Of a stretch of DNA of 64,000 nucleotides, positions 6,735-31,232 are shown piece by piece. Numbering within the stretch: the stretch's first letter is position 1; each line of letters opens with the position of its first letter. Source of the DNA: a bacterium. Lineage in GTDB: Bacteria > Patescibacteriota > CPR2 > UBA1875 > JAJYID01. Position numbers and translations under genes: made by a program. The notes beneath the pieces are model-generated. The model saw only the letters and a program-made list of their open reading frames with translations, had not been told where the DNA came from and did not search any database. Location of the stretch: positions 556,321 through 620,320 of the forward strand of contig JAJYLR010000001.1 of assembly GCA_021787535.1 (NCBI GenBank), written 5' to 3'.

Positions 6735-9700
6735 CTAATCACTCGTCACATCTATCTCAGGCAAATCCGCTCCTTTGCCCTCGATAATTTCCGCATCTTT
6801 CAATTCTTCAATATCTTCTTCATACTCAGTTTCTATAACTTCTTCGGCTGTCGCTTCTCTTTTGATCCGATCTTTAGCATCTTTCTGCAAGAGTTCAATA
6901 TTCAAACCTAAACCTTGCAGCTCTTTAGTTAAAACATTGAAAGACTCCGGTATACCCGGCTCTTTAATTTGTTCACCTTTAATAGTAGATTCATAAACCT
7001 TGCTTCTGCCGATTACATCATCACTCTTCACTGTTAACATTTCCTGCAAAGTATGGGCGGCCCCATAAGCTTCAAGTGCCCAGACTTCCATCTCTCCAAA
7101 TCTCTGGCCTCCGTTTTGGGCTTTTCCGCCGAGCGGCTGCTGCGTCACCATGGCATATGGGCCGATTGATCTGGCATGAACTTTATCCTCTACCAAATGA
7201 AGTAATTTTAAAATGTAGTTATAACCGACTGTTGTTTTCTGATTGAAGTATTCACCGGTCCTGCCGTCTCTCAGCCGGATCCGGCCGTCTTCCGGCAAAC
7301 CGGCTTTTGCAAGTTCTTCCTTGATATTTTCAATGTTTACGCCATTAAAAACAGGTGAAGCCACTTTATAGCCAAGCGCTTTAGCCGCCCATCCAAGATG
7401 AGTCTCTAAAACCTGCCCGATGTTAAGGCGGGAAACAACCCCTAGAGGATTTAAAATGACGTCAACCGGCGTGCCGTCTTCAAGATAAGGCAGGTCTTCA
7501 ACCGGCAGAATTCTGGCAATCACTCCTTTGTTTCCGTGGCGCCCGGCCATCTTATCCCCGACCGCTACCTTTCTCATTTGAGCAACGGTAACAAATACCT
7601 GCTTTATAACCCCGACCGGCAGCTCGTCGCCTTTATCCCTGGACTTAATTCTGACATCGATCACTTTGCCATTCAGCCGCGACGGCAGCCGAAGCGACGT
7701 GTCTTTCACATCACGGGCTTTTTCACCGAAAATAGCACGGAGCAGTCTTTCCTCAGCCGTTAGCTCGGTCTCGCCTTTTGCAGTAATCTTACCGACCAAA
7801 ATATCGCCCGACGTTACTTCGGCGCCGATTCTCACTATCCCATCCTCATCCAGATCGCGAAGAGCTTCTTCACCGACATTTGGAATATCGCGGGTAATCA
7901 CTTCGGGACCAAGTTTGGTATCACGAACATCTATAGGAAACTCTTCCAGGTGGATAGAAGTATATCTATCATCCGAAACGAGCCGTTCTGAAATAATAAT
8001 AGCATCTTCGTAGTTGCCTCCTTGCCAATTCATGTATGCCACAAGGACATTCTGGCCTAAAGCTATCTCTCCGTCTTCTGTGGCAGTCCCGTCTATTAAA
8101 AGATCGCCTTTTTTAATTTTCTGTTCTTTTTCAACAACAGTTTTTTGATTGATGCAGGTTCCCTGATTAGACATCGCAAATTTATCTAGCGCATAAATTT
8201 CTTCTTTGCCATCTGTGTATTTAACAGCTACGGAATCAGCCGTAGAAGCAATAACTTCTCCGCCTGTGCGAGCTCTCACAATTTGCCCGGACGATTCCGC
8301 TACATTCCCTTCAACGCCGGTTCCTACAACCGGTGACTCCGGTTTCACAAGAGAAACGGCCTGGCGCTGCATGTTTGCGCCCATCAGGGCTCTCTTTGCA
8401 TCATCATGTTCCAAAAATGGTATGAGAGCTGTTGAGATGCTGACAGATTGTTTAGTTGAGACGTCAAGATAATCTATTTCTTCCACTAGCGCTTCGTCTG
8501 CTTCCAGTTTTCTCCTGACCGGAAGAATTTTATCCTTGAAATATCCCTTTTCATCCAGAGGTGTGCTGGCTTCGGCAATAATAGAATTTTCTTCCTGAGC
8601 TGCATTTAAATAAACTATATCGTCTGATACTCTTGATTTGATTTTAATGATATCTTTTTTCACCTTTTGAAGCTGCGCAGCTATTTTTTGAGTGATAACA
8701 TCTCCGCTGTCCACAACCTTTCTCGCTCCGTCTTTGATGGTTTCAGCTGAAATTTCTCCAACCGGAGATTTGCCGTCATTTTTCACTTCTTTCAGTACTT
8801 TACGGTACGGCGCTTCTAAGAATCCATATTCATTGACTCTCGCATATGAAGCAAGAGCATTCACAAGACCAATATTCGGCCCTTCGGGAGTTTCTATCGG
8901 ACAAATGCGGCCGTAATGCGTACGGTGCACATCTCTAACCTCAAAACCTGCCCTTTCGCGGGTTAAACCGCCGGGACCGAGAGCTGATAATCTTCTTTTA
9001 TTTGAAAGTTCAGCGAGCGGATTTGTTTGATCCATAAATTGCGAAAGCTGAGATGAAGCAAAGAATTCTTTAATAGAAGCAACAACCGGTCTCACATTTA
9101 CCAGCTGGCTCGGGGTAACCGTTTCGGGGTCATTGGTACTCATCCGGTCTTTGATGATTCTCTCAGTCCTTAGCATCCCTACCCTGAATCTCTGTTGTAG
9201 TAGCTCGCCCATAGTTCTGAGCCGTCTGTTTGCTAAGTGATCAATGTCATCATGTTCTCCCTGTGCATTGTTCAGTTTAATAATTTCTTTAATAACTTCA
9301 ACCAGATCGCTCACCTGAAATACTCTGTGTTTTCTATCTTCCGGCAAATTCAAACCCAACCGTTGGTTTATCTTGAATCTGCCAACGCGCGAAAGATCAT
9401 ATTTTCTATGGTCAAAAAACATTCCGTCAATCAAAGATTTGGAATTATCGGCAGTTGCAAGATCACCGGGACGGATCTTTTTATAAGTTTCTATATAGGC
9501 CTCTTCTCTATTGGAGGAAGTGTCTTTTTCTAAAGTAGCATTTATATAGTCATGTTCCTTATCAGTATTAACTGAAGTGAAAAGCTTTTTTATATCTTCA
9601 TCCGCGGCATAACCAAAAGCTCGAAGCAAAGTTGTAACAGGAAATTTTCTCTTGCGGTCGATTTTGACATAGATCACATCCTGAGCCGATGTTTCCAGTT

Positions 9701-10211
9701 CAAGCCAAGCGCCATAGACCGGAATAATTTTGGCGCCGAAATATTTTCTTCCGCTTATCCAGTCAACAGTAAAAAATGCACCCGGTGAGCGCATTAGCTG
9801 GCTAATTATGACTCTCTCGACACCATTGATAATAAAAGTCCCTCTCTCTGTCATAATAGGCAAGTCGCCGAGAAATATCTCTTGATTCCGAGTTTTCCCG
9901 GTAACCTTGTTTTTGAGCTCTAGATTGACTCTGATAGGAGCTTCATAAGTCATCTTTTTTTGTTTGGCAACTTTTTCCGAATGTTTTTCTTCTTCTAGAT
10001 AATAATCTTTAAAAGACAGCTCTAAGTTCTGTTTGGTAAAATCTTCTATCGGAGAGAGTTCTTCGAATATTTCTCCTATGCCTTCTTTAACAAACCAGTT
10101 GTAACTATCGGCCTGAATTTCAAGAAGATTTGGCAGCGGCAAGATCTCCTTTGTTTTATTAAAATACTTCCTTTGTGTTTTCGATGCGGTCACAGAGTCG
10201 CTTTTTGCCAT
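6735..10211 (-). CDS. rpoB: DNA-directed RNA polymerase subunit beta
   Basis: 1158 aa; conserved RpoB blocks (GEMEVWALEAYGAA, ...RHGNKGV...), directly upstream of rpoC. Confidence 0.97.
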   Translation of the reverse strand: MAKSDSVTASKTQRKYFNKTKEILPLPNLLEIQADSYNWFVKEGIGEIFEELSPIEDFTKQNLELSFKDYYLEEEKHSEKVAKQKKMTYEAPIRVNLELKNKVTGKTRNQEIFLGDLPIMTERGTFIINGVERVIISQLMRSPGAFFTVDWISGRKYFGAKIIPVYGAWLELETSAQDVIYVKIDRKRKFPVTTLLRAFGYAADEDIKKLFTSVNTDKEHDYINATLEKDTSSNREEAYIETYKKIRPGDLATADNSKSLIDGMFFDHRKYDLSRVGRFKINQRLGLNLPEDRKHRVFQVSDLVEVIKEIIKLNNAQGEHDDIDHLANRRLRTMGELLQQRFRVGMLRTERIIKDRMSTNDPETVTPSQLVNVRPVVASIKEFFASSQLSQFMDQTNPLAELSNKRRLSALGPGGLTRERAGFEVRDVHRTHYGRICPIETPEGPNIGLVNALASYARVNEYGFLEAPYRKVLKEVKNDGKSPVGEISAETIKDGARKVVDSGDVITQKIAAQLQKVKKDIIKIKSRVSDDIVYLNAAQEENSIIAEASTPLDEKGYFKDKILPVRRKLEADEALVEEIDYLDVSTKQSVSISTALIPFLEHDDAKRALMGANMQRQAVSLVKPESPVVGTGVEGNVAESSGQIVRARTGGEVIASTADSVAVKYTDGKEEIYALDKFAMSNQGTCINQKTVVEKEQKIKKGDLLIDGTATEDGEIALGQNVLVAYMNWQGGNYEDAIIISERLVSDDRYTSIHLEEFPIDVRDTKLGPEVITRDIPNVGEEALRDLDEDGIVRIGAEVTSGDILVGKITAKGETELTAEERLLRAIFGEKARDVKDTSLRLPSRLNGKVIDVRIKSRDKGDELPVGVIKQVFVTVAQMRKVAVGDKMAGRHGNKGVIARILPVEDLPYLEDGTPVDVILNPLGVVSRLNIGQVLETHLGWAAKALGYKVASPVFNGVNIENIKEELAKAGLPEDGRIRLRDGRTGEYFNQKTTVGYNYILKLLHLVEDKVHARSIGPYAMVTQQPLGGKAQNGGQRFGEMEVWALEAYGAAHTLQEMLTVKSDDVIGRSKVYESTIKGEQIKEPGIPESFNVLTKELQGLGLNIELLQKDAKDRIKREATAEEVIETEYEEDIEELKDAEIIEGKGADLPEIDVTSD

Positions 10212-17334: not shown

Positions 17335-17432
17335 TAAATGTTGAACTATTCTATCATGTATCCTTACCGAAGTTAAGCATAAAAATCAAGTATTGGTTCC
17401 ATTCAATTACCAAAAAATTATGCAAAGAGAAA

Positions 17433-17454
17433 GGGCGCCTTTATTAAGGCGCCC
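17433..17454. terminator. Hairpin gggcgcctTTATTaaggcgccc flanked by A/T runs
   Basis: 8-bp GC stem. The minus-strand reading is followed by tttctctttgcataatttttt, so it could terminate a minus-strand transcript from the ORF-free region 17460-18300. Confidence 0.45.
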
Positions 17455-18030
17455 AGTTGCGATCAATAAAACGTGGGGAAATAAGAGATCGCAATATTCA
17501 CACAGTGCACTTATTACTTAAATTAATGAGATGACTTTCCCCAAAATCATCTCTTTCATCATAGCTTTTCCGTTTCTGTCTTTTTATCTAAGATGGTCTT
17601 CCATCAAGTGTGAAGCACTTTGACCCTTCAGAGTTGGAGTTATAGAACTCGAGCTCGGATCTAGTATTTACAACACTCTTTAAAAGGTCTTAGCATCGAC
17701 AACTACGGTACTTGCTACGACGGCTACTGATCTTTTCTTTTGCCCCTAACAATCTACCGTCGGCCGGAGTGCAAGTGATTTTGCCTACTCAAGACCGATT
17801 TCGGTCAAGGGAAACTGGCGCAATTCTCTTACAGCTACTCGAGCCCAATTGGTAAAGGGTATGTGACGACAAAAGTACCCAATCAGTAACACTAAATATG
17901 ATACACTAACTTCAAAATTTTGTCAACATTTTTCTGGCTCTCTAACCTTTAGCGTGGTAAATTCGTGCTTACTTGAGCACAAAAAAGTTGTCCGGACAAG
18001 TTTTAGAGTAAATTAATTTTTTTGCGTCTT

Positions 18031-18448: not shown

Positions 18449-18480
18449 AGCGGAGACTTACGTAAGTCTCCGCTTTTGTT
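18449..18480. terminator. Bidirectional terminator agcggagacttACGtaagtctccgct + TTTT
   Basis: 11-bp perfect stem with T tracts on both strands, immediately after the stop of the minus-strand 77-aa gene at 18480. Confidence 0.65.
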
Positions 18481-18713
18481 TAGCCATTTTCTGCTTCCTT
18501 GATGATCTCTTCCGGAATGTCCAATTTGTGTTTTTTGCAAAAATCACTTAACGACATTCCCGAATCAGCATCAATCCATATTGCCTCCAAATCAGGACAA
18601 TCATCGATACCCCAGAGGAGTATTTCCAGAACCTTCTCGGCACTTTCTATAGAGATATTCCATTTTTGGCTGGCATACGATGCAAGGGTTGTTTCGTCCA
18701 CCTTCATGCCCAT
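18480..18713 (-). CDS. Hypothetical small acidic protein (77 aa)
   Basis: ORF MGMKVDETTLASYASQKWNISIESAEKVLEILLWGIDDCPDLEAIWIDADSG...; 13-nt spacing to the upstream gene and shared terminator. Confidence 0.5.
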   Translation of the reverse strand: MGMKVDETTLASYASQKWNISIESAEKVLEILLWGIDDCPDLEAIWIDADSGMSLSDFCKKHKLDIPEEIIKEAENG

Positions 18714-18725
18714 TTCGCTTCCCCC

Positions 18726-19382
18726 TTACCCAGTATAGGTTTCGTAAATGTGGTAAGCCATGAGAACCTTGTCCATCCATCTTTCCTTGTGAACATCCTT
18801 TACAAGTTCCTCTAGCATCTCCCAGAGCGTTATGTCGGGAAGAGCGCGGAAATCGTCCTCGCCGATTCTGATACCACCCTTGGTATGCCAGTAGTCCGGC
18901 ACCTGGTAGAACTTCTTCTCTCCGAGAAGGCATGTCTGAATGTTGAAGAAAGACCTGCCTTTTGAGAGATTATATCTCTCGATCGGCTCCTTCATCGACT
19001 CTTCTTCATCCGCCTCGTCGAGAATATTGAACATCGGCCAGATAATACTCTCATCCGAAATGCCAACTTTGCAATAACTATTGTTCCTCTCGTCAATGTT
19101 TTCCACGACAATGAAAGGAACCGTCATGTCATTTGGCATCTGATTCCAGACTTCTTTGCATTTTAAGCAAGGCAGACCCGGCAAATCTCTCTCAAACAGA
19201 TCCGGCGAAAACACAAAGTTGTTGACGCAAGGATTATCTTCAATCCCCAGAGCCGCTTTGGCATGCCGCTTGCAACAAAAAAGCATTTTCCCCATTGGCC
19301 AGGCGCTGCCAACCAAATCGACGCCACAATTTCTATAACCGCACTGTCCCATCGAATGCAAAGCTCTAGCTGCTTCGGTCAT
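18726..19382 (-). CDS. Hypothetical Cys-rich protein (218 aa), putative zinc-binding N-terminus
   Basis: N-terminal CGYRNC...CCKRH...C...C..C cluster. GC-richer than its neighbours. Its own promoter has an extended -10 (TGCTAAAAT, minus strand about 19440). Confidence 0.5.
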   Translation of the reverse strand: MTEAARALHSMGQCGYRNCGVDLVGSAWPMGKMLFCCKRHAKAALGIEDNPCVNNFVFSPDLFERDLPGLPCLKCKEVWNQMPNDMTVPFIVVENIDERNNSYCKVGISDESIIWPMFNILDEADEEESMKEPIERYNLSKGRSFFNIQTCLLGEKKFYQVPDYWHTKGGIRIGEDDFRALPDITLWEMLEELVKDVHKERWMDKVLMAYHIYETYTG

Positions 19383-19498: not shown

Positions 19499-19945
19499 CT
19501 AAAAAAGTTCTTTTATTTTCCGCCAATCTAAGGTTTGAATGTAGTCTTCCGGCAATCCGCAATCCTTAGCACCCTCAAGAACAATGCCTTGATACTTTTC
19601 ACCCGGAATATCTTCAACTGGATTGGGACGAATATAAACAATGGCCTTTGTTTTATTGCCTTCATCATCTTTCACTAAAACAATCTGTCTCTCATAAAGC
19701 CGTTCCTTATACCTCTCATATTCGTCAAGATTAGTGAGATCCTTTTTGTGAATGTCAAAAAGCCCTCCCCAAACAATATCTCCTTCAGCCGCGGCAATAT
19801 TACCGCAAGTGTACCAGAAACCGCATCCGCCATCGTAAACGAAGCGATAATTTTCCAGATGGGCCCTTTTCATAAACTTCGCCTCAGGACATCTCTCCCT
19901 CATCTGTTCAAAATTCATATTCGATCCGTAAGCAAAATATTTCAT
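19499..19945 (-). CDS. Gamma-glutamyl cyclotransferase-like (AIG2/GGCT family) protein
   Basis: N-terminal YFAYGSNM motif characteristic of the GGCT/AIG2 fold; 148 aa. Confidence 0.75.
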   Translation of the reverse strand: MKYFAYGSNMNFEQMRERCPEAKFMKRAHLENYRFVYDGGCGFWYTCGNIAAAEGDIVWGGLFDIHKKDLTNLDEYERYKERLYERQIVLVKDDEGNKTKAIVYIRPNPVEDIPGEKYQGIVLEGAKDCGLPEDYIQTLDWRKIKELF

Positions 19946-20631
19946 TTCATTTTCTCAATTCTTCTTTTAATCGGTTCACTTTTTAGCTCTCGGAGCGCGT
20001 CAGCCGCGATCCAGCGCCCTGGCCTCGAGCCAGTCTTTTGAATTTCTTCCGCTGTTTGAATCGCCTTTTCATAAAGATTTCGGTTTCTCATTTTTCCGAT
20101 GTTTCTAAGCGCCCAGTTGGCCGCTTTTTTGACAAAGTTTCGCTCATCCGCCGACTCTCTTTTAATAATTTTTAAAAATTCGATGAATTTCTCATCATCC
20201 GCTTCTTTATCATGCGCCGCAAGACCGGCCATCAGCGAGAAAGCGGCGCGTTTCACAAACTCTTCATCTCGGCCCGCCCACTCGATCGCCTTTTTGTAGG
20301 CAAACGCGGTCTGATCGAAAAGATCGGTTGTAGTAATATCGCACAACCCCCACGAATCAAAGTCGTTGGCCCAAACGTCCATCTGCTCTTCCGTCACCTT
20401 CTCCGGCTCATCGATCAAGGCCGCCAGCTGTTTGGCATCGCGAATTGGCTGCTGCCAAAGTTCAAGTGCCAGTTCATGGCTTTTGCCGATTTCTTTGGCT
20501 AATTTTCGTAAATTCGGCAGTGAAACTCCGATAGATCCCTCGACCGGACAGGCAAAACGCTCATTTCTCGCCAAATACTCAGGATCAGCAAGCTTATTCA
20601 ATCTTCCTATAATCTCTTCAACTTTAGTCAT
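19942..20631 (-). CDS. DNA alkylation repair protein (AlkD/AlkC-like HEAT-repeat family)
   Basis: 229 aa all-helical; matches the DNA alkylation repair enzyme family by pattern (…NFVKKAANWALRNIGK…, …WANDFDSWGLCD…). Confidence 0.6.
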   Translation of the reverse strand: MTKVEEIIGRLNKLADPEYLARNERFACPVEGSIGVSLPNLRKLAKEIGKSHELALELWQQPIRDAKQLAALIDEPEKVTEEQMDVWANDFDSWGLCDITTTDLFDQTAFAYKKAIEWAGRDEEFVKRAAFSLMAGLAAHDKEADDEKFIEFLKIIKRESADERNFVKKAANWALRNIGKMRNRNLYEKAIQTAEEIQKTGSRPGRWIAADALRELKSEPIKRRIEKMK

Positions 20632-20981
20632 TTTTTACTCTCTAGGACTTGGATCCTTATCCCAAGCGCACCATATTTTTCCTCTTTTTCCTTCGGATAG
20701 TAGTTCACATAAGTTGATGATATAAAATCTTCCCTGTTCCAGTTTCTAAAATGCCTTTCGCCCAGCAAATCATAAAGTTCGCCAAACGTTTTGCAAGATA
20801 TTAGTTCAACTACCTCAACCAAGAGTTTTTCAGCTAAATCAGGTCTTTTTAAGAACTCAATTTTGTCGCCAATCCTAAGTTTCTGCCTTTTCTCATCATT
20901 AAGCCGCACTTCGACAGTCTTTTCTCCGCTTTTCAGCTCTTCGAAGGGTCGTGCATTTAATCTCATATAATGTGTTTTCAT
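20628..20981 (-). CDS. ASCH domain protein
   Basis: 117 aa; MKTHYMRLNARPFEELKSGEKTVEVRLNDEKR... resembles the ASCH (PUA-like) beta-barrel N-terminus. 4-nt start/stop overlaps with both neighbours. Confidence 0.55.
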   Translation of the reverse strand: MKTHYMRLNARPFEELKSGEKTVEVRLNDEKRQKLRIGDKIEFLKRPDLAEKLLVEVVELISCKTFGELYDLLGERHFRNWNREDFISSTYVNYYPKEKEEKYGALGIRIQVLESKK

Positions 20982-21418
20982 AAACTTACCTGATTCTTAA
21001 TTTGCTCAAATTTACTTTCTCCGATTCCCGGCACTTTTTTCAAATCTTCCAGTACTTTAAATAATCCGTTTTGGTTGCGCCAATCAATGATTTTTTGTGC
21101 CGTTGCCGGACCGATGCCCTGTAGCTTATCTAAATCTTGCAAATCGGCGGTGTTTATATTAATTTTTGCCGTCATTCTGGCTTGTCCAGAATCTGTCTGC
21201 CCGCCCTTTACTTCAGAATTTGTCTGAATGTCAGTCTTTTGCGGCTGGACAATTTTAATCGGCTCTTTGCCGTCATCCGAATATTTAATAAAGAGCAGTC
21301 CTGTCCCGCCGATAATACCGATCACCAGTAAAATGCCTATGTTATTATAGATTCTCTGTCTTCTATCCTTTTTTTGATCTTGATCCATAAAACCTTTAAT
21401 ATTCAATGCCGAAAACAT
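20978..21418 (-). CDS. comEA: ComEA-like helix-hairpin-helix DNA-binding protein
   Basis: N-terminal TM segment and C-terminal INTADLQDLDKLQGIGPATAQKIIDWRNQNG.F..LEDLKKVPGIG (tandem HhH). Contains an in-frame copy of the 23-nt repeat encoding DSGQARMT. Confidence 0.75.
   Translation of the reverse strand: MFSALNIKGFMDQDQKKDRRQRIYNNIGILLVIGIIGGTGLLFIKYSDDGKEPIKIVQPQKTDIQTNSEVKGGQTDSGQARMTAKININTADLQDLDKLQGIGPATAQKIIDWRNQNGLFKVLEDLKKVPGIGESKFEQIKNQVSL
21171..21193. repeat. Palindromic repeat gtcattctggcttgtccagaatc inside comEA coding sequence (in frame)
   Basis: Identical 23-mer to 18031 and 55912. On the minus strand it translates as ...DSGQARMT... within the ComEA ORF. Confidence 0.7.
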
Positions 21419-21428
21419 GGTACGGACA

Positions 21429-22019
21429 TCAGTCTCCCTCGCCCTTCTTTGTATTTTTGATTAATCCGCCGTGACCGGGAATGATGTAGTCCGCCACTTT
21501 TAATATCTTCAAGCGGCTCTTCACCAAGTCTTCCTGGGTGTTGGCATACGGATCTTCCTCGGGAGTAAAATCCTCGTACCACCAGAGATCGCCCGCCACA
21601 CAGACCAGTCCGATATCAGTTCGAACCAGAAGCGAAGCATGAATGTCTCCGCCATGGCCGGGAGTGGCAACCATTTTGACATCCGGCGTAATATCAATCT
21701 CTTCATCGCTTGAGTGAAACCTATGCTCATCTCCTCTATGATATCCCCACCTGTCCATAATGGTCGCATTTTCAAAGACGGCCCGGTTCATGGAGTGGTC
21801 TAAGTGCTCGTGAGTGGTAAAAACTAAGTTAATATCTGAAATAGTCAGTCCGAAGTCGCCAAGAGCAAAAATATACATGCCGATCGACTGATGTGAGCCC
21901 GGGTCTACAATGATATTCTTATCCCGATCGCGAACCAGCGTGCAAGTGCAGGCATATTTATGAAATTGCTGATTCAGCTCTTTGTTATAACCCTTGATTA
22001 AAACGTCAACTTGTGCCAT
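21429..22019 (-). CDS. Metallo-beta-lactamase fold hydrolase
   Basis: THEHLDH (HxHxDH) zinc motif; 196 aa. Confidence 0.75.
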   Translation of the reverse strand: MAQVDVLIKGYNKELNQQFHKYACTCTLVRDRDKNIIVDPGSHQSIGMYIFALGDFGLTISDINLVFTTHEHLDHSMNRAVFENATIMDRWGYHRGDEHRFHSSDEEIDITPDVKMVATPGHGGDIHASLLVRTDIGLVCVAGDLWWYEDFTPEEDPYANTQEDLVKSRLKILKVADYIIPGHGGLIKNTKKGEGD

Positions 22020-22418
22020 TTATACTCCTACTTTCTCTATTTCCTTAATATCTTCAAATTCTATCACTTTATCCGCCATTTCGCGTAAAAATGTAGTTTC
22101 GATTCCTTTTCGGATAAACAAAACTACCTTTTTCTTCTTTACCAGCGCGTATCCGAATTCGATTAACATGCCTTCGCTCTTTGTTTCAGAATTAACAAAA
22201 GTGAAAACCAGATCTGCTCTATCCAATTCCCTAAATGCATATTCCAAAAGTTTTTTGTTTGAGTAATTATTTTCCTTAAAAAACCCGCTCTTGCTTTCCC
22301 AGTAAGTACAGAAAACTTCATGGCCGGCTTCTTTCAAACCAGAACAAATAGTTTTAATATTTCGGTCAAGCTCAGCCGAATCTTCACCCGTAAATCTGTA
22401 TGACACAAATATTCTCAT
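22020..22418 (-). CDS. Nucleoside 2-deoxyribosyltransferase-like / TIR-like (flavodoxin-fold) protein
   Basis: 132 aa. MRIFVSYRFTGED..., GHEVF, ADLVF...SEG..EFGYA..KKKV pattern resembles NDT/Rcl-like and TIR-like families. Confidence 0.45.
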   Translation of the reverse strand: MRIFVSYRFTGEDSAELDRNIKTICSGLKEAGHEVFCTYWESKSGFFKENNYSNKKLLEYAFRELDRADLVFTFVNSETKSEGMLIEFGYALVKKKKVVLFIRKGIETTFLREMADKVIEFEDIKEIEKVGV

Positions 22419-22705
22419 TCAGCTTTAAATCCGATGTTTTGATCAGGTTCCTGAGCCGCTTCGATCTTCCCGAACTGATCCTCGTATTTTTTTACGTTAT
22501 CTTTAAGAGCATTTAAGATTCTTTTCGCATGACCGGGACTGGTGAAAACTCTGGAAACTAATGACCCTTGCGGTGGAAACACATTCAAAAAATCGAGCAC
22601 AAACTCTTCTTTGGTATGTCCAATAATTAAATTATTTGTGTAGACACCTTTCGCCGTCTGATCATCAGCTTTGATTTGTATTTGTTGTTGTGGCTGCTGA
22701 TTCAT
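22415..22705 (-). CDS. DUF3467-like small protein
   Basis: 96 aa; ...YTNNLIIGHTKEEFVLDF...SRVFTSPGHAKRILNAL... matches the DUF3467 pattern. 4-nt overlap with the downstream gene. Confidence 0.45.
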   Translation of the reverse strand: MNQQPQQQIQIKADDQTAKGVYTNNLIIGHTKEEFVLDFLNVFPPQGSLVSRVFTSPGHAKRILNALKDNVKKYEDQFGKIEAAQEPDQNIGFKAE

Positions 22706-22818
22706 TTTTTATTCTCCTTTTTAAAATTATACCCCAAAAACCCCTTTTTTATAAGCCCTATGCAAAAGGACCGGTGTCGATATACCGGCCCTTTGATTTT
22801 TATAGGAGACTTGAGTTG

Positions 22819-30578: not shown

Positions 30579-31232
30579 CTACTGAGACACAAATTTATTG
30601 TCTTTGATTGTAAACCGCCAAAGCTTATCGCGGTAAATGTCGGCATAGTCTATGCCAATGCGTTTTGAGGTTTCGATTTTAAATTTATTAAAGAAAGAGA
30701 TTCCTCCACTCGTCGCTCTGCGAAGTCGGTCGGAATGACAGAGAAAAGGATCCTCAACCCAAACGCGATCTGAATCCGTAATGTCTTCATCGTAGAATGT
30801 TTTATCCAGATTAAGGGCGGCGCACAGTTTACCCGGCCCTTTCATGAAATCTTTGTCCGAGCGAACCCGGCCGAAATTTCTTAAATTTTCTCTGGCAAAT
30901 TCAATTCCGCCAACCGGTTCAAGGGCGCGGATTAAAACTGCCTCCGGCACATGTTCCTTTGCAGTTACAATATTGAAGTTATAGTACATCCCATAAATCA
31001 GATAGATGTAAATATGGCCGGCTGCACCATACATGACTTTGTTGCGCTCGGTTTTGCCATTACGCGCGTGGCAAGCCAGGTCTTCTTCGCCGACATAGGC
31101 TTCAGTCTCGACAATTTTGCCGCTAATAATACCTTGATCGGTTTTTCTGACTAATATTTTACCTAGGAGTTCCGGCGCCACCTCTAGCACCGGCCGCTCA
31201 AAGAATGTTCGATCCAATTTTGAATTTTGCAT
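30579..31232 (-). CDS. DNA-3-methyladenine glycosylase (Mpg/AAG family)
   Basis: VETEAYVGEEDLACHARNGKTERN...YGAAGHIYIYLIYGMYYNFNIV matches the Mpg family. The C-terminus contains an in-frame palindromic repeat. Confidence 0.8.
   Translation of the reverse strand: MQNSKLDRTFFERPVLEVAPELLGKILVRKTDQGIISGKIVETEAYVGEEDLACHARNGKTERNKVMYGAAGHIYIYLIYGMYYNFNIVTAKEHVPEAVLIRALEPVGGIEFARENLRNFGRVRSDKDFMKGPGKLCAALNLDKTFYDEDITDSDRVWVEDPFLCHSDRLRRATSGGISFFNKFKIETSKRIGIDYADIYRDKLWRFTIKDNKFVSQ
30699..30740. repeat. Palindromic repeat gattcctccactcgtcgctctgcgaagtcggtcggaatgaca inside the 3mA-glycosylase coding sequence (in frame)
   Basis: Same family as 25671-25713; translated as LCHSDRLRRATSGGI within the ORF. 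Confidence 0.7.

Follow-up and report, generated by a model that had tools for sequence, protein, structure and literature searches.

A tightly packed seven-gene cluster with variable gene content around constant ComEA-type and gamma-glutamyl cyclotransferase-like genes in one lineage of Patescibacteriota

The stretch of DNA analyzed here (64 kb in length and referred to below as the window) comes from a bacterium of the CPR2 group of Patescibacteriota, and between positions 19499 and 22705 it carries seven small genes on the minus strand that are packed together with almost no DNA between them. Based upon comparison of this cluster with the corresponding loci of related genomes, it appears to be a heterogeneous operon made up of members of known protein families rather than a new pathway or a system of defence. 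We consider it reasonably probable that the cluster represents a lineage-specific operon, in which a conserved promoter and a frame formed by the genes for a ComEA-type protein and a gamma-glutamyl cyclotransferase (GGCT)-like protein accommodate small enzymes that are interchangeable, that act independently of one another and that in many cases would be concerned with the upkeep or salvage of nucleic acids. An earlier note on this DNA had described seven minus-strand genes joined by ATGA overlaps, and all seven open reading frames (ORFs) were found again in the sequence at matching positions. The genes, and the element that precedes them, are as follows:

22726–22744, minus strand: putative promoter, a promoter-like element GGGGTTTTTGGGGTATAAT recognized by inspection of the sequence
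22415–22705, minus strand: gene 1, DUF3467 protein (96 aa)
22020–22418, minus strand: gene 2, N-glycosidase-like protein of the nucleoside 2-deoxyribosyltransferase (NDT) superfamily (132 aa)
21429–22019, minus strand: gene 3, metallo-hydrolase of the metallo-beta-lactamase (MBL) fold, MBLAC1-like (196 aa)
20978–21418, minus strand: gene 4, ComEA-type helix-hairpin-helix (HhH) DNA-binding protein, membrane-anchored (146 aa as the longest ORF)
20628–20981, minus strand: gene 5, ASCH-domain protein (117 aa)
19942–20631, minus strand: gene 6, DNA_alkylation protein with HEAT-like repeats, referred to as AlkD-like (229 aa)
19499–19945, minus strand: gene 7, GGCT-like protein (148 aa)

From gene 1 to gene 7, the junctions between consecutive genes measure −4, 0, +10, −4, −4, and −4 nt. 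The stop codons of all ORFs of at least 80 aa were scanned for overlapping starts that open ORFs of at least 60 aa, and on the coding strand of the 64-kb window ATGA overlaps were found only at positions 19942, 20628, 20978, and 22415, besides two others that involve short and probably spurious ORFs. The remaining junctions, in a crude gene map of the 64 kb, are mostly 10–300 nt in length, and the chance that four of four overlaps should fall within six consecutive junctions out of about 55 is approximately 4e-5 by a rough hypergeometric estimate. As the ATGA overlaps are confined to the cluster, such close coupling characterizes this locus and not the genome as a whole. Two other interpretations of this packing were rejected. 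An alternative genetic code, in which TGA is a sense codon and the ORFs are fused, is inconsistent with the use of TGA as the stop codon by 7 of the 28 Pfam-supported genes and with protein lengths that match those of the homologs; similarly, an array of integron-like cassettes is inconsistent with junctions of −4 to +10 nt, which are too short for attC sites, and no integrase is present at the locus.

To assess the conservation of this cluster, related loci were reached via homologs of the AlkD-like, ASCH, and GGCT-like proteins, which led to eight loci that share a tyrS–recG backbone and whose RecG proteins are 77–86% identical (a scan of the genome contigs with RecG as a single protein gave just four loci, which were distant and uninformative). 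One of the related loci comes from a 0.1-µm groundwater filter fraction, some homologs are named Patescibacteria or Liptonbacteria, and the source contig of the window measures 636 kb, all of which would agree with a bacterium of the CPR/Patescibacteria type that has a small genome. The gene content of the window and of its seven relatives is given below, where the absence of a gene is scored at the locus:

Window: DUF3467, NDT-like, MBL, ComEA, ASCH, AlkD-like, GGCT-like; other genes, none
L001: DUF3467, ComEA, AlkD-like, GGCT-like; also Macro and cupin
L005: MBL, ComEA, AlkD-like, GGCT-like; also transposase, radical SAM/SPASM and cupin
L013: DUF3467, ComEA, ASCH, GGCT-like; also a 188-aa unknown protein
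L020: ComEA, ASCH, GGCT-like; also radical SAM and a 187-aa unknown protein
L021: MBL, ComEA, GGCT-like; other genes, none
L022: ComEA, GGCT-like; other genes, none
L100: AlkD-like, GGCT-like; other genes, none

The full set of seven genes recurs in none of these related loci, and the synteny that would be expected of a single functional module is thus not conserved across the seven relatives. The GGCT-like gene is present in all of them and the ComEA gene in every locus that covers its position, and these two genes alone are constant. The DUF3467, MBL, ASCH, and AlkD-like genes are each found in about half of the related loci and in all kinds of combinations: DUF3467 in three of the six informative loci, MBL in L005 (75% identity) and L021 (74%), ASCH in L013 (56%) and L020 (46%), and AlkD-like in L001 (89%), L005 (75%), and L100 (67%). 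The NDT-like gene is absent from all related loci of the lineage and it was found in the window genome only.

Despite this variability in content, certain features of the locus are retained. The ATGA overlaps recur among the related loci, and the 3′ end of the ComEA gene (…AGGTRAGTTTATGA) together with its overlapping ATGA is conserved in the window (20978–20985) and in L001, L005, and L021 (at 10001–10004). The gene that starts at this ATGA differs, however, being ASCH in the window, AlkD-like in L001 and L005, and GGCT-like in L021. Judging from these sequences, whole genes are swapped or deleted at the 3′ junction of ComEA while the coupling junction is preserved. A scenario of precise deletion of the ASCH gene in L001, based upon similar start sequences, was also considered, but it was set aside as over-reading of these data. 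The head of the operon shows similar conservation. In the window, a TATAAT −10 box is located 19 nt ahead of the GGAG ribosome-binding site of gene 1, and the G-rich 19-mer GGGGTTTTTGGGGTATAAT occurs only once in the 64-kb window. With 2–3 mismatches, this element also begins the homologous operons of L005/L006 and L021, where its copies (L005 7802–7820; L021 9002–9020) each precede a different first gene. The operon head, marked by the promoter-like element TTTTGGGGTATAAT, would thus appear to be conserved. The claim of tight coupling among the seven genes is therefore upheld by their packing and by a promoter-like element of their own, whereas the further claim that they constitute one functional unit is not, as the septet never recurs in the relatives.

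Based upon the anatomy of the cluster, the assignments to families and folds, the conservation of catalytic residues and the presence or absence of genes among the relatives, we infer that the seven genes are co-transcribed and translationally coupled, and that the ComEA…GGCT-like frame has acquired and lost small stand-alone enzymes singly. Their products would most likely act independently rather than as consecutive steps of a pathway, and what they have in common may be their shared expression and, loosely, the upkeep or salvage of nucleic-acid components, with no mutual dependence seen among them. The parts of an obligate pathway or complex are expected to be gained and lost together. As the genes of this cluster are not, their interpretation as a single module is unsupported, and the proposal that they form one pathway for handling DNA or nucleotide damage, which had been made based upon the domain content, is not supported in view of their independent assortment in the relatives and of the unrelated contexts in which their homologs are found elsewhere.

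The family assignments on which this proposal was based have mostly held up in profile searches, with six of the seven Pfam assignments passing the curated thresholds. The DUF3467 protein matches Pfam PF11950 (E = 5e-24) and also PHROG 7919 (E = 4e-8). No relative of it was found in the PDB in our search, its AlphaFold2 (AF2) model from a single sequence has a pLDDT of 44 and is unusable, and there is essentially no literature on DUF3467. The prediction of an MBL-fold hydrolase is confirmed by a match to Lactamase_B (E = 2e-12) and by the metal-binding motif HEHLDH, and it can be refined to MBLAC1-like, as the top PDB match is human MBLAC1 (4v0h; E = 1.7e-15), which is an RNA 3′-end endonuclease (PMC6303110). 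The protein from the window may thus be a metal-dependent hydrolase and possibly a nuclease. The identification of gene 4 as encoding a DNA-binding HhH protein of the ComEA type is likewise borne out, as it scores above the thresholds for HHH_3 (PF12836; E = 9e-23, 80.7 bits versus a cut-off of 27) and TIGR00426 (70.5 bits versus 53.1), although it is below the cut-off of the full-length model TIGR01259 (80.8 versus 152). Its N-terminal hydrophobic helix IGILLVIGIIGGTGLLFI is conserved and qualifies as a membrane anchor, and the protein is predicted to bind extracellular double-stranded DNA. The ComEA proteins of the relatives begin at the equivalent of Met11, for which the window has an ATG at 21388 with AAGG 4 nt upstream, and hence the spacer between the MBL and ComEA genes is probably 40 nt and not 10 nt.

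The NDT-like protein, when examined as a single sequence, scored just below the gathering threshold of PF05014 (27.6 bits versus 28.8). The precomputed annotation of an identical protein lists PF05014, and a profile of 29 members of this family reaches the solved NDTs with an E value of 2e-5. The residue E87 is invariant across these 29 members and it aligns with the nucleophile Glu of the motif DEGVMVELG in the solved NDTs. An AF2 model of this protein has a pLDDT of 90.9, and its top 50 Foldseek matches in the PDB are all BcmB, DNPH1, NDT, or MilB with a probability of 1.00; the folds that it appears to match best, as judged from the model, are those of BcmB and DNPH1 (TM-score 0.80). The protein had earlier been designated as NDT/TIR-like, and while its membership in the NDT superfamily is supported by both the family profile and the model, the resemblance to TIR is not, as the best TIR chain in the profile search had an E value of 0.15 and no TIR protein was present among the top 50 structural matches. 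This protein shares the fold and the conserved nucleophile-Glu motif SEGMLxExG with DNPH1, BcmB, MilB, and the classical NDTs, but it is only 14–21% identical to them and its N-terminal region contains F-x-S-Y-R-F-T-G-E instead of the canonical substrate-binding motif. It belongs to an uncharacterized compact subfamily of CPR/DPANN-type genomes. DNPH1 has been described as a “nucleotide pool sanitiser” (PMC10603095) and MilB and BcmB are (hm)CMP N-glycosidases. The protein from the window would use the conserved Glu to cleave an N-glycosidic bond, its substrate being a nucleoside or nucleotide that possibly carries a modification. Outside of the lineage, the neighbors of its homologs (40–60% identity) vary, and these are gyrB and gyrA on either side, an integrase in an archaeon, or rpoD as the preceding gene. 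In L008 (6001–6408) and L009 (5467–5874), the interval from gyrB to gyrA holds a 55% identical homolog and a gene for a 144-aa unknown protein with spacers of 1 nt, and genes for AbiEii, HEPN, and nucleotidyltransferase proteins are found nearby.

The presence of an ASCH domain in the product of gene 5 is supported by PF04266 (33.4 bits versus a cut-off of 21.2) and by PHROG 19935 (E = 1e-21). No support was found for the earlier interpretation that it recognizes modified bases, as far as DNA is concerned. Its octapeptide GEKTVEVR fits the motif GxKxxExR, as defined by bioRxiv 10.64898/2026.02.27.708502, the Lys and Glu of which are essential for deacetylation of N4-acetylcytidine (ac4C) (bioRxiv 10.64898/2026.02.27.708502). 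In the PDB, the protein is matched best by PF0469 and PH0355 of Pyrococcus. Related Pyrococcus ASCH proteins hydrolyse ac4C, and ZmASCH and TRIP4 are among the ASCH proteins that show no activity with the free form of ac4C (bioRxiv 10.64898/2026.02.27.708502). With a domain of about 110 aa that contains this octapeptide, the window protein resembles YqfB, TthASCH, and the archaeal ac4C amidohydrolases, and it is better assigned to the ac4C amidohydrolases in type than to proteins that read modified bases in DNA; its predicted activity would be the deacetylation of ac4C, either as a free nucleoside or in tRNA. Homologs of this protein outside of the lineage are found in unrelated gene contexts.

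Gene 6 encodes a full-length DNA_alkylation domain (PF08713; E = 4e-30, 105.6 bits versus a cut-off of 21, covering profile positions 4–206 of 213). The residues W94, D98, and W173 are invariant in 31 homologs and they align with W109, D113, and W187 of AlkD, which are its catalytic residues (PMC8626424). In terms of both this domain and the Trp-Asp-Trp triad, the protein is similar to Bacillus cereus AlkD. However, in comparisons with the PDB it is closer to AlkF (1t06/3zbo; E = 1e-15, 61 bits) than to AlkD (3jxz and others; E = 1e-5, 28 bits). AlkF carries Y/D/N at the positions of the AlkD triad, and AlkF and AlkG are without glycosylase activity and bind branched DNA (PMC4433238). The description of this protein as an AlkD-like glycosylase is thus supported with regard to its domain and triad, but not with regard to a closer relationship to AlkD than to AlkF/AlkG. 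Since it combines an AlkF-like scaffold with the catalytic triad of AlkD, which the non-catalytic AlkF lacks, the protein represents a separate, widespread and uncharacterized subfamily. This subfamily is plausibly active in catalysis, in which case its members might excise cationic or bulky alkylpurines from DNA without base flipping. Outside of the lineage, a 57% identical homolog is flanked by polA and fpg, which is a base-excision-repair context. About 8 kb away, the window also encodes another alkylpurine DNA glycosylase, which belongs to the unrelated MPG/AAG type (30579–31232, minus strand; Pur_DNA_glyco, E = 3e-61), and hence the AlkD-like gene is not the sole gene for an alkylation-repair glycosylase in this genome.

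The call of gene 7 as GGCT-like was found to be sound, with matches to AIG2_2 (E = 3e-18), GGACT (E = 1e-14), and PHROG 2520 (E = 3.5e-24). Over the whole domain, it also matches human GGCT (E = 8e-16) in an alignment that includes the motifs YGSN and LDEYE. The YGSN and acidic LDExE motifs are features that it shares with human GGCT (C7orf24) and the AIG2-like family, and it may cyclise a gamma-glutamyl compound to 5-oxoproline. This family is also common as a phage “moron” gene, and its linkage with ComEA is specific for the lineage of the window. The ortholog in L021 (10001–10483) contains a Cys-rich, zinc-ribbon-like insertion CENCNSAESKKGICSKCGEDL, which is missing from the window protein.

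Other explanations for this cluster have to be weighed against an operon of independently acting enzymes. If ComEA captured environmental DNA and the cytoplasmic enzymes stripped alkyl, acetyl, hydroxymethyl, and ADP-ribosyl groups from it, so that nucleotides could be recycled without de novo synthesis, the cluster would represent a sanitation pathway linked to DNA uptake. In agreement with this, ComEA is the invariant anchor of the operon, the nearest characterized relatives of its cargo are sanitising or salvage enzymes (DNPH1, BcmB/MilB, ac4C amidohydrolases, AlkD, and Macro in L001), and a gene for a cytidine/dCMP deaminase is present about 2 kb downstream in both the window and L001. However, none of the independently assorting cargo genes is required alongside ComEA, whose constant partner is the GGCT-like protein with no obvious role in nucleic acids; the cargo includes cupins, radical SAM/SPASM, DUF3467, and unknown proteins of 187/188 aa and 237–263 aa, which do not fit the theme; no comEC or other competence gene is found within the 64-kb window; and the association of these genes is limited to one lineage. 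We consider such a pathway to be unlikely. The cluster can also be compared with the comE operon of Bacillus subtilis. That operon consists of comEA-comEB-comEC, and ComEC carries an MBL domain. The window resembles it in having a ComEA-type HhH DNA receptor in a small operon, a deaminase of the ComEB type (dCMP/cytidine) nearby and an MBL-fold protein adjoining ComEA. It differs in that a ComEC channel is lacking in the window, the MBL protein matches MBLAC1 and lactonases rather than ComEC, and the deaminase gene belongs to a separate transcription unit beyond a terminator, a candidate non-coding RNA (ncRNA) and tRNA-Leu. A bolder form of the uptake idea envisages a “plug-in” operon of ultra-small bacteria that scavenge DNA, in which a conserved promoter and the ComEA…GGCT-like frame would carry interchangeable coupled cassettes, each dealing with another modification of the scavenged DNA, RNA, or nucleotides (alkyl, N4-acetyl or ADP-ribosyl groups, and hydroxymethyl or other odd bases) by removing it, with the content tracking the habitat and the swaps occurring exactly at the ATGA junctions; this we regard as a speculative proposal with little likelihood.

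At the other extreme, the genes may have no functional theme and may be neighbors merely by descent in a streamlined genome, the ATGA overlaps having resulted from deletion bias downstream of a convenient promoter. The functionally unrelated tyrS and recG genes are conserved as neighbors in the same loci, the NDT-like homolog of L008/L009 is packed closely between the unrelated housekeeping genes gyrB and gyrA, and many of the cargo proteins are unrelated or of no known function, all of which accords with this explanation. But the ATGA coupling is confined to the cluster within the 64 kb, and in the relatives it is kept at the same junctions despite a changed downstream gene, so that coupled expression may well be under selection here; nucleic-acid-related proteins also appear to make up a high share of the cargo, and chance neighborhood alone seems to us quite improbable. 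The least probable explanation by far is a module for defence against phages, or for counter-defence, whose NDT/TIR-like, ASCH, and Macro-like domains would target nucleotides. Conflict systems centred upon nucleotides do include domains of the NDT/SLOG-like, Macro, and PUA-like types, the ASCH, GGCT-like and DUF3467 families are also found in phages (PHROG), and the variable content of the locus is reminiscent of defence islands. The occurrence of these three families in phages fits with small genes that are individually mobile. The suggestion of a defence-related module found no support in PADLOC-DB 2.0, in which none of the seven cluster proteins or three neighbors (ten proteins in all) had a match at E ≤ 0.01. 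In addition, the fold of the NDT-like protein matches metabolic N-glycosidases and not TIR, the window locus is without nuclease or ATPase effectors, restriction-modification, toxin-antitoxin, integrase, or transposase genes, and the cluster is embedded among core housekeeping genes. When all ORFs were searched with the family profile hidden Markov models, no second family of the cluster was found on 67 viral loci (66 with GGCT-like and one with AlkD-like genes), nor was any found on 77 metagenomic GGCT-like loci from outside of the lineage, 39 of which have at least 1.5 kb of upstream sequence.

The interpretation that we favor, an operon of independently acting enzymes within a conserved frame, also has to account for several observations that weigh against it. 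For six of the seven genes, two or more other relatives have the gene at this locus too, and selection may be a reason why they have stayed together. The greater part of the annotated cargo (AlkD, ASCH, NDT-like, the Macro protein of L001, MBLAC1-like, and ComEA) concerns nucleic acids or nucleotides, a share that looks to be above that of a random grab-bag, and a real shared process could underlie it. Further, the comparison covers only eight related loci, several of which are on short contigs, and the absences noted in it refer to the locus and not to the whole genome.

If the interpretation that we favor is right, it cautions that very tight translational coupling and suggestive domain names do not by themselves point to a pathway or a defence system. 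What is of value in this cluster is the widespread and uncharacterized HEAT-repeat subfamily in which an AlkF-like scaffold bears the catalytic triad of AlkD, the compact subfamily of the NDT superfamily from CPR/DPANN-type genomes, and a clear case of gene turnover within an operon whose promoter and ATGA junctions have been kept. If the theme of upkeep and salvage is true, it would also bear upon how bacteria that are unable to make nucleotides handle modified building blocks.

The DNA that flanks the cluster contains the following features:

22771–22788, minus strand: palindromic hairpin CCGGTGTCGATATACCGG, between a methyltransferase-like gene and the promoter-like element of the cluster
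18480–19382, minus strand: two ORFs (218 aa, Cys-rich, and 77 aa) that follow the GGCT-like gene and precede the first strong terminator
18449–18474, minus strand: first strong intrinsic terminator downstream of the cluster, with an 11-bp stem that includes six GC pairs, followed by a T-run
17416–17926, minus strand: candidate structured ncRNA of about 470 nt, ORF-free, between the operon terminator and tRNA-Leu

The methyltransferase-like gene, which had previously been noted immediately upstream of the cluster, was excluded from the unit. Its match to Pfam is below the threshold (22.6 bits versus a cut-off of 27; E = 0.015 in the PDB), it is absent from the relatives and unique to the window genome, and the hairpin CCGGTGTCGATATACCGG and the promoter-like element lie in between. 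The T-run of this hairpin is weak on the minus strand; the hairpin probably separates the methyltransferase-like gene and the cluster as transcription units. On the downstream side, no convincing terminator was found between the GGCT-like gene and the ORFs for the 218-aa and 77-aa proteins, and these ORFs, which also have a promoter-like sequence of their own (TTGCTA-N18-TGCTAAAAT), are possibly co-transcribed with the cluster by read-through. Neither of the two proteins has a match in Pfam, PHROG, or PADLOC. Both ORFs are missing from the closest relative, L001, and are specific for the window genome, where they appear to be an insertion. A prophage or mobile element at tRNA-Leu was considered for this region, but it is unsupported, as no integrase and no match of the window-specific ORFs to phage families were found. 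Just 3′ of the strong terminator, the ORF-free segment 18305–18446 is 68% identical to positions 9263–9415 of L013, which are directly upstream of tRNA-Leu. The window otherwise consists of core housekeeping genes, which include rpoBC, NIF3, clpP, tig, PBP, murB, radA, clpC/B, nusA, RNase HII, L19, dnaE, gatAB, and ligA. Nearly all of its genes are on the minus strand and the GC skew is negative throughout (cumulative −8.95), in keeping with a strongly strand-biased region of a single replichore.

The ORF-free segment next to tRNA-Leu shows several characteristics of a structured RNA. It has a consensus promoter (TTGACA-17-TATCAT) and its 3′ end consists of a GC-rich hairpin followed by a T-run. 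The corresponding segment of L001 is about 95% identical over about 400 nt, as compared with 77–87% for the coding DNA of the same genomes, and the presence of 1–2-nt indels excludes that it is coding. No match to it was found in Rfam or among tmRNAs. The segment folds better than shuffled sequence (z = −3.9), and a diverged third copy is present at the same position in L021 (11087–11648). Of the 119 predicted pairs, 18 show compensatory changes and about 35 are broken. Based upon these characteristics, the segment at 17416–17926 may represent a new structured RNA.

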